A stretch of DNA of 64,000 nucleotides. It comes from Escherichia phage RB49. A program made the translations under genes and the position numbers. Location of the stretch: sequence record NC_005066.1, one strand, 5' to 3'. This document shows, piece after piece, positions 31,525-42,102 of the stretch. Under the pieces are notes generated by a model that was not told the DNA's origin, did no database searches, and saw only the letters and a list, made by a program, of their open reading frames with translations. Positions within the stretch are counted from its first letter, which is position 1; each line of letters begins with the position of its first letter.

Positions 31525-31728
31525 TTAACCGTATACGCGAAAGTATTCTACTGATCCGTCGCTATACTGTTTTACATTGAATGTATTCACACCATGATTA
31601 TTTCTCATGATGACATATACACTGCGACGTTCATCGCTAAACGGCATAACTGGCGCTGGTTCAATATCAACACTAAAACCACGTTTAGCAAGTGCTTCGC
31701 CTAATTGCTTGAGTTTATCGGTAAACAT
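31525..31728 (-). CDS. Hypothetical small protein
   Basis: 67 aa ORF. Confidence 0.4.
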   Translation of the reverse strand: MFTDKLKQLGEALAKRGFSVDIEPAPVMPFSDERRSVYVIMRNNHGVNTFNVKQYSDGSVEYFRVYG

Positions 31729-32627
31729 TAAAATTCTCCGTAGTTAACCTGAAAACATTCTACACCAATTGAGCGGTACATGTCAACCACTTGATCACGG
31801 TCATCTACCGCCAAAACAACATGATAACGCGGTGCAATTTCAGAGAAGAAGATCTCTTTCTTCACTTCATGATCAGGACGACGATCATTAGTTTCACGTT
31901 GAAAGTGATCACTAGGTTCAATACCCTGTTCACGCAACCATTGCAGAGTATCTTCTTCGCAAACATCCTCACGCCCTGAGCATGTGATGATACGATAGCC
32001 ATTATCACGATACAGTTTAAGCATTTCGACCACTTGCGGACGAGGTTTATCTTCTTTGACCTTTGTCCAGTCAAACGGATGACGACCGCCCTTATCCGCT
32101 AATGTTCCATCAATATCAAAGATCACTGCCTTTGGCAGCATAGTATTCGGTTTGTATACTTCTTGACCCATATATTCCTGCATCAGATAAAATTGGTTAC
32201 GCAAATGAGAAAGTGGAATTGCTTTCTCGCCGCGATAGAAATTACGTTTCTTTAGTGTCTCAAACGGTTCATTGAACACTTGTTCAGTATACACCGCGTT
32301 AAATTCTTTTGCAAGTTCTTTGTAGAATACACGATGTTTTTCTTTCAGATTAGTATCAGAGATAATGATACTTAATCCGCGTGATAGAGTCTCACGAGCA
32401 ATCATTCTCTGAATAGACTCTACCAGCTTTTCTTTTTCCTTAGTATACTTGTATTTCAAATGTGAGTCAACACCAAACAACATAAGACGAAGATCATCGC
32501 GATTCACATTACGATAATTACTAAACCGTTTACATGTTTCCATCGCCCATGTAGTTTTACCGGACCCAGAACAACCAACGGTTAAAATCACTTCACATTT
32601 CGGCATTATTTCTCCTTCGGTTTGCAC
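31728..32627 (-). CDS. pseT: Polynucleotide kinase / 3'-phosphatase
   Basis: 299 aa; P-loop GCSGSGKT and HAD-type phosphatase motif VIFDIDGTLAD, as in T4 Pnk. Confidence 0.85.
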   Translation of the reverse strand: MQTEGEIMPKCEVILTVGCSGSGKTTWAMETCKRFSNYRNVNRDDLRLMLFGVDSHLKYKYTKEKEKLVESIQRMIARETLSRGLSIIISDTNLKEKHRVFYKELAKEFNAVYTEQVFNEPFETLKKRNFYRGEKAIPLSHLRNQFYLMQEYMGQEVYKPNTMLPKAVIFDIDGTLADKGGRHPFDWTKVKEDKPRPQVVEMLKLYRDNGYRIITCSGREDVCEEDTLQWLREQGIEPSDHFQRETNDRRPDHEVKKEIFFSEIAPRYHVVLAVDDRDQVVDMYRSIGVECFQVNYGEF

Positions 32628-33058: not shown

Positions 33059-33429
33059 TTAGTAGCCTCCTTTAATTCTTCGGTAAACTCCTTAAATGAA
33101 TCATTAAGCTGTTTCTCTACCAACTTGGGTTTTTGTGCTACTACATAGCCTCGTGTAGCGTCTTTCATTGCTTTGTTTTGTTCTTCTGCAAACTTAGTTC
33201 TTATTCCGTACATCTCCTTTTGTAGCGAGTCTACAATCTTCATCTTATCATCTGTCTTTTTCTTATACTCTGTAAATTCCTGATTCAGTCGATCTACCTC
33301 CTTTTTATTTTCCCACCACATATTGCCACCCACCCCCAGCAATACAGATATGATAACAATGTATATCAGCTTTGACATATTACCCCCAACGACAAAAGGC
33401 GGGGAACTAGCCCCGCTTATTATTACCAA
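33055..33429 (-). CDS. Putative inner-membrane spanin (Rz-like: N-terminal TM plus coiled coil)
   Basis: 124 aa; TM helix LIYIVIISVLLGVGG then charged coiled-coil periplasmic domain. Confidence 0.45.
   Translation of the reverse strand: MVIISGASSPPFVVGGNMSKLIYIVIISVLLGVGGNMWWENKKEVDRLNQEFTEYKKKTDDKMKIVDSLQKEMYGIRTKFAEEQNKAMKDATRGYVVAQKPKLVEKQLNDSFKEFTEELKEATK
33398..33416 (-). terminator. Stem-loop (attenuator/terminator candidate)
   Basis: ggcgggg-aactag-ccccgc hairpin at the rnlA/spanin junction. Confidence 0.35.
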
Positions 33430-34592
33430 TCAATCTTATCAGCCGGAATAAGTTTCTTATAATTCCGTAGATAGTAAGTTTTCATTGAATCCATAATACG
33501 GTCATAATCAAGACCATCAAATGCAATCATCAGACACATGAAAATATATGCGTGTGCATCACCGTGTTTACGTGATTCGATAGTCGCATTTGATGCATAT
33601 GTCTTTCTGTCTTCTCCCGCGTGTGCGTTATAAAATTCTGTTGCTGTCGTGAAGGCATTGCGAAGAATAGACCTGAATGCTTCCTCGAATAGCTCGATTC
33701 GTTCCAGTGCTTCCGGTTCGCCTTCATATGCAGCACGCAAATCATCGGTTTCGCTTTCTACGACATAGTAGATCAGGTTATTAGGAAACATCGATGTGTT
33801 TTTAATGTTATGCACACCAATATACCATTCACTCTTCACCTTGAACATTTGACCGTCTTTAGTGCGTGCAACAATTCCTTCGATACCTTCTGCGATCCGA
33901 ACTTCATCAAGAATATTGCTAAAACGCGCTGAATCAACCTGTAACGCATTTACCAGATGAGGACGTAGGATTGCGTCAGCAAATAGCATTTGATGCGGTA
34001 CGTACTCTCCTGTGACGTTATGGCGTACATTCAGAAGTGTTAGCGACGGTTCAGAATATTCTACAACAATTCGGTTGCTGGGTGCTGTATATTCAAAGTT
34101 GAAAGTATAATCAGACCCAATATCAGCAATCTTAGCGCGTAGATCCGCATACTTCTCTGAATACAGAAGACCGTTTGCTCTCTCTGCCTGGCTTGAGTAC
34201 AAGGCCGCTTTAGACTTCAACTGAACATAGCCATTATCAATGTATGTGCTTACTAGACTACCGTCCATTTTGTCCATGACCATTTCCACATCTTCCGGCT
34301 TAAAGCGAGCGCGATCATTCTCACCCAAATTAAAAAACTTCTCCATAGGACGAGATGCAATGCGGACCGGACGACCTTTATCGTCAATTTCAAACATGAT
34401 CCCGCGACACTCTAACGCATCTGGTTTATTCCACATTTCCGGTTTGCTCAAGTACAGATAGCTAAAAATGCGCATACGGGTTTGCATCGCCGTAATTTCA
34501 TCTTTGTAATAGAACGTATCAGATCCGTCACATAGTGCCATCAGATTTTTGAACAATGCTAAAACTTTTTTGTTGTTTTCTTTTGTTGACAT
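33423..34592 (-). CDS. rnlA: RNA ligase 1
   Basis: 389 aa; RIFSY ... PDALECRGIMFE ... VRIASRPMEKFFNL and the KMDGSLVSTY adenylation-lysine motif match T4 Rnl1 as recalled. Confidence 0.85.
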   Translation of the reverse strand: MSTKENNKKVLALFKNLMALCDGSDTFYYKDEITAMQTRMRIFSYLYLSKPEMWNKPDALECRGIMFEIDDKGRPVRIASRPMEKFFNLGENDRARFKPEDVEMVMDKMDGSLVSTYIDNGYVQLKSKAALYSSQAERANGLLYSEKYADLRAKIADIGSDYTFNFEYTAPSNRIVVEYSEPSLTLLNVRHNVTGEYVPHQMLFADAILRPHLVNALQVDSARFSNILDEVRIAEGIEGIVARTKDGQMFKVKSEWYIGVHNIKNTSMFPNNLIYYVVESETDDLRAAYEGEPEALERIELFEEAFRSILRNAFTTATEFYNAHAGEDRKTYASNATIESRKHGDAHAYIFMCLMIAFDGLDYDRIMDSMKTYYLRNYKKLIPADKIDW

Positions 34593-35039: not shown

Positions 35040-35438
35040 TTAACTTTCCAGAATATCGCGAGCTTCGTTACGCTCCTTGATGATTTTCAGGACAAATTCC
35101 AGTTTTTCTTTGTTCAGCGTTCCATTTTCCATTGCTTCTTTGACGGTAAACACTCCGCCACCTTGCCCGTATACAGTGACAGTGATTTCACCTAACATCG
35201 TGGTATGAAAACCGCCAATTTTCGGTGATTCGAAAGAAACAATTACCTCGCGGACAGTATTACCGTCGTTGATTTCTGAGAGGGTAATGTCGTTTTTGTA
35301 GGCGGTTGCTTTAACCATACGGATCAGCATAGTCTGATCTGGGGAGATGGTCATTTTGTCCATTGCATGTTGCAATGCAGCGTAACCGAAAACTTTAACG
35401 AAGTCCAGAACGTCTTTGCGAGTTTGAAATTTAATCAT
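35040..35438 (-). CDS. Hypothetical protein
   Basis: 132 aa ORF with promoter cassette upstream. Confidence 0.5.
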   Translation of the reverse strand: MIKFQTRKDVLDFVKVFGYAALQHAMDKMTISPDQTMLIRMVKATAYKNDITLSEINDGNTVREVIVSFESPKIGGFHTTMLGEITVTVYGQGGGVFTVKEAMENGTLNKEKLEFVLKIIKERNEARDILES

Positions 35439-36013: not shown

Positions 36014-36232
36014 TTACTTGTTGTATTCATTCCACCATTGGGTGAGCTTATCAATTATTTTTGTGTTTCTATCCAACTTCTCCCACCGTTTTCTAGGGTT
36101 TATCAACCGGAATAGGTAAGGTGTACTTGTTAAGTGGACTCGGTCAATGTAGTGATTGATGTACTGCTTTTCAATTCTAAGTTTCATCTTTTTACGATGA
36201 AAATATGCAATGACTTGTTCTTCTGTTTCCAT
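36014..36232 (-). CDS. Hypothetical small protein
   Basis: 72 aa ORF. Confidence 0.5.
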   Translation of the reverse strand: METEEQVIAYFHRKKMKLRIEKQYINHYIDRVHLTSTPYLFRLINPRKRWEKLDRNTKIIDKLTQWWNEYNK

Positions 36233-36285
36233 ATGTTCCTCCGTTTCGATGTGCGTATTATGCTATGGCAAGATCAGATTGTCAA
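36233..36285 (-). promoter_or_regulatory. Early promoter cassette
   Basis: TTGACA-17 bp-CATAAT-ACGCACATCGAAACGGAGG. Confidence 0.55.
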
Positions 36286-36300
36286 CACCCAATAACAAAA

Positions 36301-36322
36301 AAGTCGCCACTATGGGCGACTT
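36301..36322 (-). terminator. Stem-loop terminator immediately upstream of the promoter cassette
   Basis: aagtcgcc-actatg-ggcgactt followed by TTTTTT on the minus strand, then TTGACA. Confidence 0.55.
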
Positions 36323-36332
36323 TGAACAAACA

Positions 36333-36809
36333 TTAATCATGACCGTGATTTGCAATATCCGCTCGCGTCTTATCTTTGTGATTTCCTACGTCAAAGACAC
36401 GATAACCATTTTCACGCAAAACTTTAATCACTTCTGGGTTATCCTCAAAGACTCCGACAACTTCATCTTTATCAAAGGATTTAATTACCTCTAATTTGAT
36501 GTGATAGTCTTTACGGGAATCGGTACGGCCTCTCATAAAGATTTTATCAAAACACACCCCGTTAGAAATTAACCAATCAATTGTTTCCATGTAAGCATGT
36601 GAACTTCGTCCGGTGAGGATGTAAATCAAATGCCCGTTGTCGGAAAGAGCATTAATAACACGAATTACATCGTAAATGGGGGAATCTCCCCCACATGCCT
36701 TGTTATATTCGATCCATGACTCAACTTTATCAAGATTTTCGGTTGGCATCTTTGCTAGTCGATGTGTTGGATCTGTGATCGTAAAATCTAAATCGACAAA
36801 ATATATCAT
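36333..36809 (-). CDS. HAD-superfamily phosphatase-like protein (possible deoxynucleotidase)
   Basis: 158 aa; N-terminal FVDLDFTIT (DxDxT) motif; overlaps the nrdB stop. Confidence 0.5.
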   Translation of the reverse strand: MIYFVDLDFTITDPTHRLAKMPTENLDKVESWIEYNKACGGDSPIYDVIRVINALSDNGHLIYILTGRSSHAYMETIDWLISNGVCFDKIFMRGRTDSRKDYHIKLEVIKSFDKDEVVGVFEDNPEVIKVLRENGYRVFDVGNHKDKTRADIANHGHD

Positions 36810-37966
36810 AGATATTTCCCGAATCGGTTGTAGTCTTCGTCTGTTAAATCGGTATTAACCTGAGATACCAGATACATAATCTCTACTTCCTGCGCTGCAT
36901 TCTGTACTTCGTCAGAGTTCAACCATTTACGCATCCACGGTAACGGATGACGACGAACACTAAACGGGCTTTTCAGTCCGGCAGCGCGCATACGGGAATC
37001 TGCCAGGTATTCTACATAGGTTTTCAGAATTTCCGGTGACAGGTTAGGAATTGCCCCCATTGCGAATAAGTGGTCTACCCATTCTTTTTCTTGCTCGACA
37101 ACATCCAGAAAGATTTTCGTTGCTTCGCCTTCAAGTTCTTCCGCAATCTGTTTCCACTCATCACCATCAACCCCCGTTTGCCATTGACGAATAATGTATT
37201 GTGTGCCTTTTAAGTGAAGTTGTTCATCACGCGCAATAAATTTCATGATCTTCGCGTTACCTTCCAGTAAACCACGTTCGGCAAAGCTGAAAGTACATGC
37301 AAAGGACACATAAAAACGGATTGCTTCCAGTGCATTTACGCAGTGTGCACACAGATAAATCGAAGCCATCAGATCTCGTTTTGTGTCTTCAAAAAATCTT
37401 CGCGCATCATCTAATGCTGTCTGGTCGTCTCGTTCTTCCCAATAGCGGAGATCTTCTTTTGCATTCTCATACTTACGAATCCAATAAAGAACATCATCAT
37501 AATATTTCCCGATAGATTCCGCTCGCTTCATGATAGCAGGGTTATCGATGATCTGGTCGAACTCACTAGCCGGATCAATGAAACAGTTACGCATAATGTG
37601 TGTATAGCTTCGGCTATGAATCGTTTCGCTGAATGTCCATGTTTGCAACCATGTATCGAGAGTTGGATCAGATACAATTGGACCAAATGCTGCGGACGGT
37701 GCGCGACCTTGAATAGAATCAAGTAATGTCTGATACTTCAAGTTTTCAGTAAAGAAACGCTTTTCAACGTCACCCATATTAAGATATTGAATACGGTCGG
37801 TTGCAAGTGAAATTTCTTCTGGACGCCAGAAAAATGACAATTGCTTTTCGATCAGTTCTTCAAATACTTGATGACGCTGAATATCATAGCGAGCGATACC
37901 CAACCCACTACCCAGAAACATTGGTTCGTTCATAATATCAACATGTTCGCGGTTAAATACGCTCAT
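36806..37966 (-). CDS. nrdB: Ribonucleotide reductase small (beta) subunit; no intron
   Basis: 386 aa; diiron-tyrosyl radical family features; continuous ORF. Confidence 0.85.
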   Translation of the reverse strand: MSVFNREHVDIMNEPMFLGSGLGIARYDIQRHQVFEELIEKQLSFFWRPEEISLATDRIQYLNMGDVEKRFFTENLKYQTLLDSIQGRAPSAAFGPIVSDPTLDTWLQTWTFSETIHSRSYTHIMRNCFIDPASEFDQIIDNPAIMKRAESIGKYYDDVLYWIRKYENAKEDLRYWEERDDQTALDDARRFFEDTKRDLMASIYLCAHCVNALEAIRFYVSFACTFSFAERGLLEGNAKIMKFIARDEQLHLKGTQYIIRQWQTGVDGDEWKQIAEELEGEATKIFLDVVEQEKEWVDHLFAMGAIPNLSPEILKTYVEYLADSRMRAAGLKSPFSVRRHPLPWMRKWLNSDEVQNAAQEVEIMYLVSQVNTDLTDEDYNRFGKYL

Positions 37967-37981
37967 TAATTCACCTCACTA

Positions 37982-38149
37982 TCACTTTTTAACACAAAAG
38001 AACTTAGTATTTCTGTTTATTTCGCTATCCTGCTGCAATTCCTGCACAGCTTCAAAACAATTTTGATATGATGAAAACTCTACGCTGGTAACAGTTCCTT
38101 TATTATATACGCCGACGCTAACGGAAAGCAATAACCATAATGTAGCCAT
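37982..38149 (-). CDS. Small protein with hydrophobic N-terminus, paralogue 1
   Basis: 55 aa (MATLWLLLSVSVGVYNKG...), hand-translated; TAATG overlap with the upstream paralogue. Confidence 0.4.
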   Translation of the reverse strand: MATLWLLLSVSVGVYNKGTVTSVEFSSYQNCFEAVQELQQDSEINRNTKFFCVKK

Positions 38150-38322
38150 TAGTTCACCTTTTGTTTTTCAACGCAATATAGATTCATAAAGCGTTTATTG
38201 TCTTCGCGGATAATCTCGCGAGCTTTAACGCAATCCTGCTTTGTTGCAAACTCAATGCTTGACATATTTCCGTAATTATACATTGAATTGCTTATTGCAA
38301 TCAATAACCATACAGTAGCCAT
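38149..38322 (-). CDS. Small protein with hydrophobic N-terminus, paralogue 2
   Basis: 57 aa (MATVWLLIAISNSMYNYG...), hand-translated; tandem duplicate of the preceding gene. Confidence 0.4.
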   Translation of the reverse strand: MATVWLLIAISNSMYNYGNMSSIEFATKQDCVKAREIIREDNKRFMNLYCVEKQKVN

Positions 38323-40869: not shown

Positions 40870-42102
40870 TTATACTGCCATTTGAGCGGTGATTGCTGGA
40901 TGGCTTTGATAGTTGTGAATTTTAAAATCTTTCGGAGTCTTTGTCAATACCTCATCTAAAGATTTAAATTCCGGCAACTCAATTGTTGGTTTATCAAACG
41001 GAACACGGCTTAACTGTTCCATAACTTGATCAAAATGGTTTTTGTAAATGTGAGTATCTCCACCAGAGAAAATCAGTTCTCCTACCTCAAGATCACACAT
41101 TTTCGCTATGATGTGAGTTAACAGCGCATAGCTGGCGACGTTAAAGGGCAAGCCCAAAAAGCTGTCTACGCTTCGCTGAAACCACATACAAGACAGTTTA
41201 CCTTCATTGACGTAGAATTGTACGAACGGATGACATACACCCAACACAGCATTATGTGTTCCTTGTACGTTCCATGAGTCAATAATGATCCGGCGATCCG
41301 TTGGATTGTTTTTAATTTGTTCAATCACGTTTTGTAACTGGTCTTCCCAAATCTTCGGGCGATAGACATATTCTTCATCGTCTTTAGTGCTCGATGTGTC
41401 TACGTCCATACTAGCAAAGATCGTGGTATCTGGTGCTAAAATATCCCCACCCAGATAATCACTATCAAGCAGATAACCGAAATAACCATCATCTACCCAT
41501 TCCTGGAATCCCCACAAGCAATATGCATCATTAACAAAATTAGATTGAGTCTTCCAGTGGTCTGCTACTAAGAATAGATTATACTCAGAATCAAACTCTT
41601 CATAACGCATACCACGCCAGATAGCACATAAACGGTCTTCTGTTTCATTGGTTGGCGTAAAGTCTTCTACCCACGGGTGTTTAAATGTATGTGTATATTT
41701 GCTCTTAACGCGCTTAATTTTGATTTCACCGTGTGGATGAATCGGTTTGCGTCGCCATGCCATACCATACATATTACCGACATTATAACCATTGAATCGC
41801 AAAGGATTCTTTTCTTTCATATCAAGACAGTTGCCGCGCCAAATATCAAAGGCTTCCTCGTCAAACTTACCGCGTGTAATTTCCTGTAAGCGACGGCGGT
41901 CAAGTGATCCCTCCATAAACCATAGCAACTCGCCAATTACAGAGGCTGTAGCCATCTTTTTAGTGGTCAGTAAGGGGAAACCCTTGCTTAAATCAATTCG
42001 CATCTCTGCGCCGAATTTAGAGAGCGTACCTACCCCCGTGCGGTCTTCACGAGGCCAACCATTATCAAGAACATCACGCAATAGTTTCAAATATTCTTTC
42101 AT
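40870..42102 (-). CDS. td: Thymidylate synthase with a ~130 aa internal insertion
   Basis: 410 aa; ThyA motifs DRTGVGT, YGMAWRR, DRRIIIDSWN, CHPFVQFYV, LGLPFNVASYALL; extra segment between the YGxxWR motif and the DxRRII motif. Confidence 0.8.
   Translation of the reverse strand: MKEYLKLLRDVLDNGWPREDRTGVGTLSKFGAEMRIDLSKGFPLLTTKKMATASVIGELLWFMEGSLDRRRLQEITRGKFDEEAFDIWRGNCLDMKEKNPLRFNGYNVGNMYGMAWRRKPIHPHGEIKIKRVKSKYTHTFKHPWVEDFTPTNETEDRLCAIWRGMRYEEFDSEYNLFLVADHWKTQSNFVNDAYCLWGFQEWVDDGYFGYLLDSDYLGGDILAPDTTIFASMDVDTSSTKDDEEYVYRPKIWEDQLQNVIEQIKNNPTDRRIIIDSWNVQGTHNAVLGVCHPFVQFYVNEGKLSCMWFQRSVDSFLGLPFNVASYALLTHIIAKMCDLEVGELIFSGGDTHIYKNHFDQVMEQLSRVPFDKPTIELPEFKSLDEVLTKTPKDFKIHNYQSHPAITAQMAV

Follow-up and report, generated by a model that had tools for sequence, protein, structure and literature searches.

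A predicted kinase-less Pnkp-type phosphatase gene behind nrdB in Escherichia phage RB49

Our analysis of a 64,000-nucleotide stretch of the Escherichia phage RB49 genome (NC_005066.1; hereafter, the window) assigns the product of the 158-aa ORF that ends the nrdB transcription unit to the HAD superfamily of DxDxT acylphosphatases, and this assignment is solid. As judged from profile and fold comparisons, the protein also belongs to the 3′-phosphatase family of phage polynucleotide kinase-phosphatases (Pnkp). On balance, we think that it probably works as a kinase-less Pnkp-type 3′-phosphomonoesterase in DNA or deoxynucleotide metabolism and not in tRNA repair, with the substrate specificity extrapolated from the T4 enzyme. 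Neither the fold nor the family or its chemistry is new, and the ORF is annotated by homology in public records. The useful results are a corrected gene order, a corrected name and the association of a kinase-less lineage with enzymes of deoxynucleotide and DNA metabolism.

A first-pass annotation of this DNA had described the ORF as a phosphatase-like gene lying upstream of nrdB and overlapping the nrdB start region, within a block that also holds nrdA, td and frd. The ORF list of the window has a 158-aa ORF at exactly that place, on the minus strand and with its stop codon included (Table 1), and frd, td, nrdA and nrdB are all on the same strand. The orientation, however, was reversed. Read along the minus strand, the order is frd, td, nrdA, three small ORFs, nrdB and, as the closing cistron, the 158-aa ORF. 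The two genes do have 4 nt in common, but at the nrdB stop codon (ATGA) and not at the nrdB start, which is position 37966, at the far end from the ORF. Within the ATGA, positions 36809-36807 form the ATG of the ORF and positions 36808-36806 the TGA stop codon of nrdB. Since the start codon of the ORF overlaps the stop codon of nrdB, any translational coupling would go from nrdB to the ORF. A weak Shine-Dalgarno-like element is present 8 nt ahead of the ATG, and the ORF is probably translated by ribosomes that terminate on nrdB. On its other side, a 9-bp terminator hairpin begins at most 10 nt past the ORF stop codon, and a terminator is annotated at the corresponding place in the record of phage Ec_Makalu_003. 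Because this terminator is followed by a new promoter, we place the ORF at the end of the nrdB unit. Two plus-strand ORFs in this region (36210-36494 and 36676-36858) were dismissed as artefacts that lie antisense to the conserved gene on the minus strand.

Table 1. Positions of the ORF, its signals, its motifs and related genes in the window
Feature	Position	Strand	Evidence or remark
Stand-alone Pnkp-type HAD phosphatase (predicted), 158 aa (= Phi1 ORF229)	36333..36809	-	ORF list; HAD_PNKP, PHROG 415, AF2, Foldseek
nrdB, adjoining the ORF on the upstream side of transcription	36806..37966	-	ORF list, annotation
ATGA overlap, 4 nt (ORF start codon/nrdB stop codon)	36806..36809	-	Read from sequence
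Weak Shine-Dalgarno-like GGGAAA within the nrdB 3′ end	36815..36820	-	Junction sequence ...TTCGGGAAATATCTATGA; putative function
Terminator (hairpin and T-run) directly 3′ of the ORF stop, closing the nrdB unit	36300..36323	-	AAAGTCGCC-CATAGT-GGCGACTTT, then TTTGTTATTG
σ70-type promoter of the next unit (TTGACA, 17-nt spacer, CATAAT)	36257..36285	-	11/12 consensus matches; first of four PeSL-like cassettes
HAD motif I, D6-L-D8-F-T10 (nucleophile Asp, general acid/base Asp)	36780..36794	-	Aligned with T4 D165/D167/T169
HAD motif II, L-T66-G-R68	36606..36617	-	Aligned with T4 S211/R213
R93-K105 segment (RGRTDSRKDYHIK), with the HAD motif III Lys inside	36495..36533	-	Aligned with T4 R246/D254/K258
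HAD motif IV, E122-D123 (Mg2+ ligands)	36441..36446	-	Aligned with T4 D277/D278
pseT, full length, 292 aa (P-loop kinase and HAD phosphatase); canonical Pnkp, distant paralogue of the ORF	31728..32606	-	
rnlA, T4 RNA ligase 1 family; partner of PseT in RNA repair	33423..34592	-	Pfam RNA_lig_T4_1, T4_Rnl1_C

The window is ~98% identical to the genomes of Krischvirus phages (RB49, Phi1, GEC-3S and others; RB49/Phi1-like T4-type phages), and copies of the ORF that are identical or at least 95% identical were found in 57 phage records. Compared with a metagenomic copy that is 96% identical, the ORF shows 15 synonymous and six non-synonymous codon differences (pN/pS ~0.09), a pattern which indicates that purifying selection is acting on it. 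A word-indexed protein search returned near-identical copies only, and an exhaustive HMMER search was used instead; 4,539 cluster representatives matched the ORF at E ≤ 1e-3. The 57 near-identical records, the low pN/pS and the large number of matching representatives argue together that this is not a chance ORF. Its GC and GC3 are unremarkable and lend no support to a recent foreign origin, so any transfer of the gene would not be recent.

The HAD-type phosphatase of the first-pass annotation was borne out. Its FVDLDFTIT stretch is found at residues 4-12, with the DxDxT motif at D6-L-D8-F-T10, and the best matches of a confident AF2 model (pLDDT 94.4 and pTM 0.89, with an 80-sequence alignment as input) are HAD phosphatases. 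Foldseek comparison of this model with the PDB gave 52 matches at E ≤ 0.001, and a HAD fold is present in all of the best 50 of these 52. The best was Pnkp1 (4XRP; E 5.9e-08), and the T4 Pnkp phosphatase (5UJ0, TM ~0.77; also 1LTQ) was likewise among the top matches. In the viral structure library BFVD, the best matches were proteins of T1-like phages (TM 0.92-0.94). Profile searches also pointed to Pnkp. The ORF matched Pfam HAD_PNKP (PF25109, polynucleotide kinase phosphatase domain) with 50.6 bits against a gathering threshold of 27.6 (E 2.9e-13), PHROG 415 from end to end (E 2.9e-51) and PHROG 505, the full-length Pnkp, over its phosphatase half only (profile positions 165-292; E 7e-20). 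Single-sequence comparisons were weak: a phmmer search of the PDB with the ORF sequence had Pnkp1 (4XRP) as its sole significant match, at E 0.011, and pairwise BLASTP against T4 Pnkp was not significant. Profiles, an alignment and fold comparison were therefore needed to bring out the relationship. When a profile was searched against the PDB, T4 Pnkp was matched at ~1e-29, a value that is partly circular since the profile alignment includes a T4 fragment; the family assignment is based on Pfam, PHROG, Pnkp1 and Foldseek instead.

An HMM search for 5′-deoxynucleotidase families, proposed in the first-pass annotation, pointed elsewhere. No 5′-nucleotidase, 5′(3′)-deoxynucleotidase or NT5C family was matched in Pfam or NCBIfam at E ≤ 10, and the family that does match is the Pnkp 3′-phosphatase domain. 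The Pfam family PNK3P gave no match at E ≤ 10, and there were weak Pfam matches to NIF/CTD-type and other HAD families. The second tier of fold matches was made up of the class B/C acid phosphatases AphA and e(P4), which are mononucleotidases. Assignment of the ORF as a class B acid phosphatase was rejected, with a score of 26.4 bits for Acid_phosphat_B (PF03767) that falls below the cut-off of 27, and with no signal peptide at an N-terminus (MIYFVDLD) that is motif I itself. The class B/C enzymes (AphA, e(P4); PF03767) hydrolyse both 5′- and 3′-mononucleotides, but these ~210-260-aa proteins carry a helical cap and are secreted or periplasmic, and the ORF scores lower against them than against Pnkp.

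Residue conservation was read from an 80-sequence alignment that includes T4 Pnkp (its sequence verified against 1LTQ), the ORF product and 77 relatives. Twelve of the 13 T4 Pnkp phosphatase residues considered are kept in the ORF (Table 2). The catalytic Asp pair, the absence of which the first-pass annotation had named as grounds for giving up its HAD call, is invariant or nearly so. Residues of Pnkp that go beyond the generic HAD motifs (R17, D42, R68, R93 and D101 in the ORF) are all present as well.

Table 2. T4 Pnkp phosphatase residues and their counterparts in the ORF product
T4 Pnkp	ORF	Alignment column (80 sequences)
D165	D6	D 80/80
D167	D8	D 79/80
T169	T10	T 77/80
R176	R17	R 79/80
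D187	D42	D 79/80
S211	T66	67 T, 13 S
R213	R68	R 79/80
R246	R93	R 80/80
D254	D101	D 66/80
K258	K105	K 80/80
D277	E122	41 D, 39 E
D278	D123	D 80/80
R279	N124	Variable; sole non-conserved residue of the 13

T4 Pnkp carrying D277E or S211T reportedly keeps its activity, and R279 is said to contact the penultimate phosphodiester (both attributed to Zhu et al. 2007). Tolerance of D277E and S211T would fit the presence of E122 and T66 in the ORF. R246 of the T4 enzyme has been implicated in polynucleotide binding. In T4 Pnkp, the nucleophile that becomes the aspartyl-phosphate is D165 and the general acid/base is D167, while the phosphate is contacted by S211 and K258 and Mg2+ is bound by D165 and D278 (PMC3592404). 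Given the conservation of the catalytic residues, the ORF product is very likely an active enzyme that uses the chemistry of T4 Pnkp. By homology, D6 would attack the phosphomonoester to form an aspartyl-phosphate, D8 would act as the general acid/base, T66 and K105 would hold the phosphate, and D123 together with E122 would hold Mg2+. The predicted outcome is removal of 3′-phosphates from DNA ends or from 3′-(deoxy)nucleotides, which would support replication, repair or precursor supply.

The same phage also encodes a complete Pnkp. Both pseT and rnlA lie ~2-4 kb downstream of the ORF on the same strand, with rnlA 1.7 kb off, and the phosphatase motifs of RB49 PseT are intact. The ORF product shares 28% identity over 102 aa with the PseT of its own phage, and it is closest to proteins of T1-like siphophages that likewise stand alone (~45% identity). 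As a full PseT and RnlA are encoded nearby, the ORF would provide an extra phosphatase and not the RNA-repair phosphatase of the phage. RB49/Phi1-type phages thus have two Pnkp-type phosphatases of different lineages, one fused within PseT (RNA repair) and one free-standing behind nrdB. The ORF product has no kinase domain or P-loop, being 158 aa long with motif I at residue 6, and the label "polynucleotide kinase" is therefore wrong for it. Near-identical genomes name it variously "polynucleotide kinase", "polynucleotide 5′-kinase and 3′-phosphatase", "3′-phosphatase", "Phosphatase" and "hypothetical protein"; in the Phi1 RefSeq record (NC_009821, phi1p229) it is labelled polynucleotide kinase. 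Judged by homology, the "3′-phosphatase" of some records is the better name.

Comparison with known systems helps to define what is shared and what is not. The C-terminal 3′-phosphatase of T4 Pnkp (PseT; 1LTQ, 2IA5, 5UJ0) has the HAD/DxDxT fold and catalytic set in common with the ORF, at ~21% identity in the Foldseek alignment. The ORF differs from it in lacking the N-terminal P-loop kinase, in having Asn in place of R279 and in being encoded beside a genuine PseT, and the stand-alone group as a whole has an insertion of ~14 residues past motif I with a nearly invariant Trp (W32). The Pnkp1 of Capnocytophaga gingivalis (4XRP), the best Foldseek match, is a 312-aa kinase-phosphatase that works with a ligase and Hen1 in the Pnkp1-Rnl-Hen1 RNA repair complex, whereas the ORF corresponds to the phosphatase domain alone. 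Much closer in architecture are the other stand-alone members of PHROG 415, which include the T1 "putative polynucleotide kinase/phosphatase", Webervirus Sin4 gp63, Drulisvirus AltoGao gp30 and P1/P7 Pap. These proteins are ~145-235 aa long, consist of the phosphatase only and show 31-47% identity. The setting differs, with the ORF placed after nrdB in a T4-type myovirus and other PHROG 415 genes placed beside genes for a dNMP kinase, endonuclease VII, an exonuclease or a DNA ligase. Yeast Tpp1 and plant ZDP are HAD DNA 3′-phosphatases that are related to the PNKP domain, have no fused kinase and clean DNA 3′-phosphate ends. These eukaryotic enzymes fall in Pfam PNK3P and can be regarded as functional analogues of the ORF product.

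Stand-alone proteins of 140-170 aa make up most of the best 150 of the 4,539 representatives, and Pnkps of ~300 aa account for ~15 of these 150. We surveyed the genomic context (±6 kb) of 80 IMG/VR viral loci, in which the HAD proteins were clustered at 80% identity to give 41 clusters. As raw counts without a background control, which rest on crude ORF calling and phylogenetically related loci, stand-alone HAD genes had PHROG 139 "dNMP kinase" nearby in 11 of the 41 clusters (immediately downstream in seven), PHROG 704 "DNA repair exonuclease" in nine, a PF18909 dATP/dGTP diphosphohydrolase-like gene in six, an ATP-dependent DNA ligase in five and an RNA ligase in two, one of the latter being the present phage. 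In Webervirus Sin4, a dNMP kinase gene overlaps the stand-alone HAD gene on its downstream side; in a Xanthomonas phage the HAD gene abuts a DNA ligase gene, downstream of nrdA/nrdB; and in Drulisvirus AltoGao it comes after a DNA endonuclease gene. No RNA ligase was seen in the inspected loci of the T1-like and Drulisvirus relatives. The gene for a full-length Pnkp in a Streptomyces phage has an RNA ligase gene and tRNAs as neighbors. An AF2 model of the kinase encoded next to the stand-alone HAD (pLDDT 87) had the T4 gp1 dNMP kinase (1DEK) as its best structural match, and a profile search of the PDB matched its P-loop only. The notion that this neighbor is a diverged polynucleotide kinase, and thus half of a split Pnkp, was rejected: it belongs to PHROG 139 and not 505, and there was no Pnkp in its top 50 matches.

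Since the stand-alone relatives are habitually found beside genes for a dNMP kinase, a dNTP diphosphohydrolase, an exonuclease, a DNA ligase or ribonucleotide reductase (RNR), a role in DNA or precursor metabolism, and not in tRNA repair, seems the most likely. The wider link to deoxynucleotide metabolism that the first-pass annotation drew from the nrdB block has, in these neighbors from unrelated phages, some independent support. Points against a 3′-phosphatase role are the replacement of R279 by Asn, the acid phosphatases in the second tier of fold matches, the near-threshold Acid_phosphat_B score, the limits of the context counts given above, the HAD genes of split Pnkps (loci L084 and L092, below) and the location of rnlA only 1.7 kb away. 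Literature searches found no experimental study of any member of the stand-alone clade.

The same neighbors could be read differently. The ORF might encode a 5′-(deoxy)nucleotidase or a general mononucleotidase that is co-expressed with ribonucleotide reductase and cuts back the dNMP pools, a reading which we consider rather unlikely. It would suit the location of the ORF at the end of the frd-td-nrdA-nrdB block, the proximity of relatives to 1DEK-like dNMP kinase, PF18909 and RNR genes, the apparent fusion of a HAD domain to a MazG-like module in PHROG 4889 and the appearance of the nucleotidases AphA and e(P4) as second-tier fold matches. T4 Pnkp itself hydrolyses the mononucleotide 3′-dTMP (PMC3592404), so some nucleotidase activity in vitro would be expected under any reading. 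Against a mononucleotidase, the best sequence and fold matches are to polynucleotide 3′-phosphatase domains, the 5′-nucleotidase and NT5C families are missing from the matches at E ≤ 10 and R93, the counterpart of T4 R246, is invariant. Moreover, a 5′-dNMP phosphatase encoded beside a dNMP kinase would presumably set up a futile cycle. A related and similarly doubtful proposal concerns the kinase-less PHROG 415 clade as a whole, which would form one module together with RNR, dNMP kinase and dNTP diphosphohydrolase and would be directed at deoxynucleotides and not at end healing. Its members could, for example, be specific 3′- or 5′-dNMP phosphatases that shape nucleotide pools, or could destroy nucleotide-derived immune signals. 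If true, this would explain why phages with a complete PseT keep a stand-alone copy.

A kinase-less 3′-phosphomonoesterase for DNA or deoxynucleotides also has to be weighed against a part in RNA repair. The ORF product shares homology with the T4 Pnkp domain that heals RNA, rnlA and pseT are less than 5 kb away on the same strand, and split Pnkp cassettes with stand-alone HAD genes do occur (L084 and L092). A redundant or specialized enzyme could accordingly heal RNA 3′ ends together with RnlA and the PseT kinase on tRNAs cut by host anticodon nucleases. We regard this as improbable, however, as the phage already has a complete PseT with intact phosphatase motifs, and RNA ligases are as rare near the stand-alone genes as the survey and the inspected T1-like and Drulisvirus loci indicate. 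It is very improbable that the ORF acts on some other substrate (such as a sugar phosphate, a phosphoprotein or a phosphorylated host immune signal derived from nucleotides) as an accessory gene for host takeover or counter-defense at the edge of the hyperplastic region, for which its border with a PeSL-rich region of accessory ORFans, its nature as a small early gene that is widespread across many unrelated phages and its weak NIF/CTD-type and other HAD matches might speak, since there is no positive evidence for it and the strong similarities are all to nucleic-acid or nucleotide phosphatases.

The main value of these results lies in the correction of annotation, with dozens of GenBank/RefSeq records giving the name "polynucleotide kinase". 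Phages carry the free-standing lineage very commonly, with thousands of cluster representatives, and its genes tend to lie near those for enzymes of deoxynucleotides and DNA ends. A function established for the ORF would extend to this large and widespread phage gene family; a 3′-phosphatase would not surprise specialists.

Several gene arrangements seen in the survey deserve mention in their own right. In one locus (L084, 5995-6966), a Pnkp is split in reversed order, with a stand-alone HAD gene (148 aa) and, directly behind it, an ORF of 174 aa whose match is to the kinase half of PHROG 505. In another (L092, 3528-6327; IMG/VR 3300013121_000012, 206 kb), a Pnkp gene has apparently been split by an HNH endonuclease gene: an RNA ligase gene comes first, then a 195-aa Pnk kinase ORF, the HNH endonuclease gene (220 aa) and a HAD phosphatase ORF of 126 aa. 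Stand-alone HAD_PNKP genes often precede a PF18909 MazG-like gene (L074, 6773-7129; L040, 6459-6842). PHROG 4889 ("polynucleotide kinase/phosphorylase", 339 positions) looks like a fused form of HAD and MazG-like parts, in which the ORF matches positions 9-145 and the neighbor in L074 matches positions 240-327. Three loci (L057, L068 and L069) have a run of PHROG 704 exonuclease (with metallophosphoesterase-like motifs), HAD, dNMP-kinase-like and ATP-dependent DNA ligase genes, which looks like a module for DNA-end processing and precursors.

The surroundings of the ORF in the window also yielded minor observations. Between positions 35432 and 36285 there are four intergenic cassettes, 225-281 nt apart, each with a GGGG...CCCC-type stem-loop and a TTGACA-17-TAxxAT promoter. 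Each precedes a small ORFan, and the 158-aa ORF is at the edge of this hyperplastic region. Shuffling cassettes called PeSL ("promoter early stem-loop") have been described for phi1/RB49 (PMC2839356), and the four cassettes match this type. Between nrdA and nrdB (37982-38322, minus strand), two small ORFs that lie in tandem (55 and 57 aa) are clear paralogues; both start with MATxWLLxxxS, end with ...CV-K and have no Pfam match. With its start as called, rnlA shares ~65 nt (34528-34592) with the 3′ end of denA (endonuclease II homologue, GIY-YIG); this overlap is unusually long, and rnlA may use a later start codon. Finally, the td ORF (40870-42102, minus strand) encodes 410 aa, which is ~125-145 aa above the usual length of a thymidylate synthase. 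Pfam Thymidylat_synt matches it in two stretches, the second of which aligns residues 254-410 with profile positions 110-266. Such a split match points to an in-frame insertion of ~140 aa near td residues 110-253, and not to an intron.
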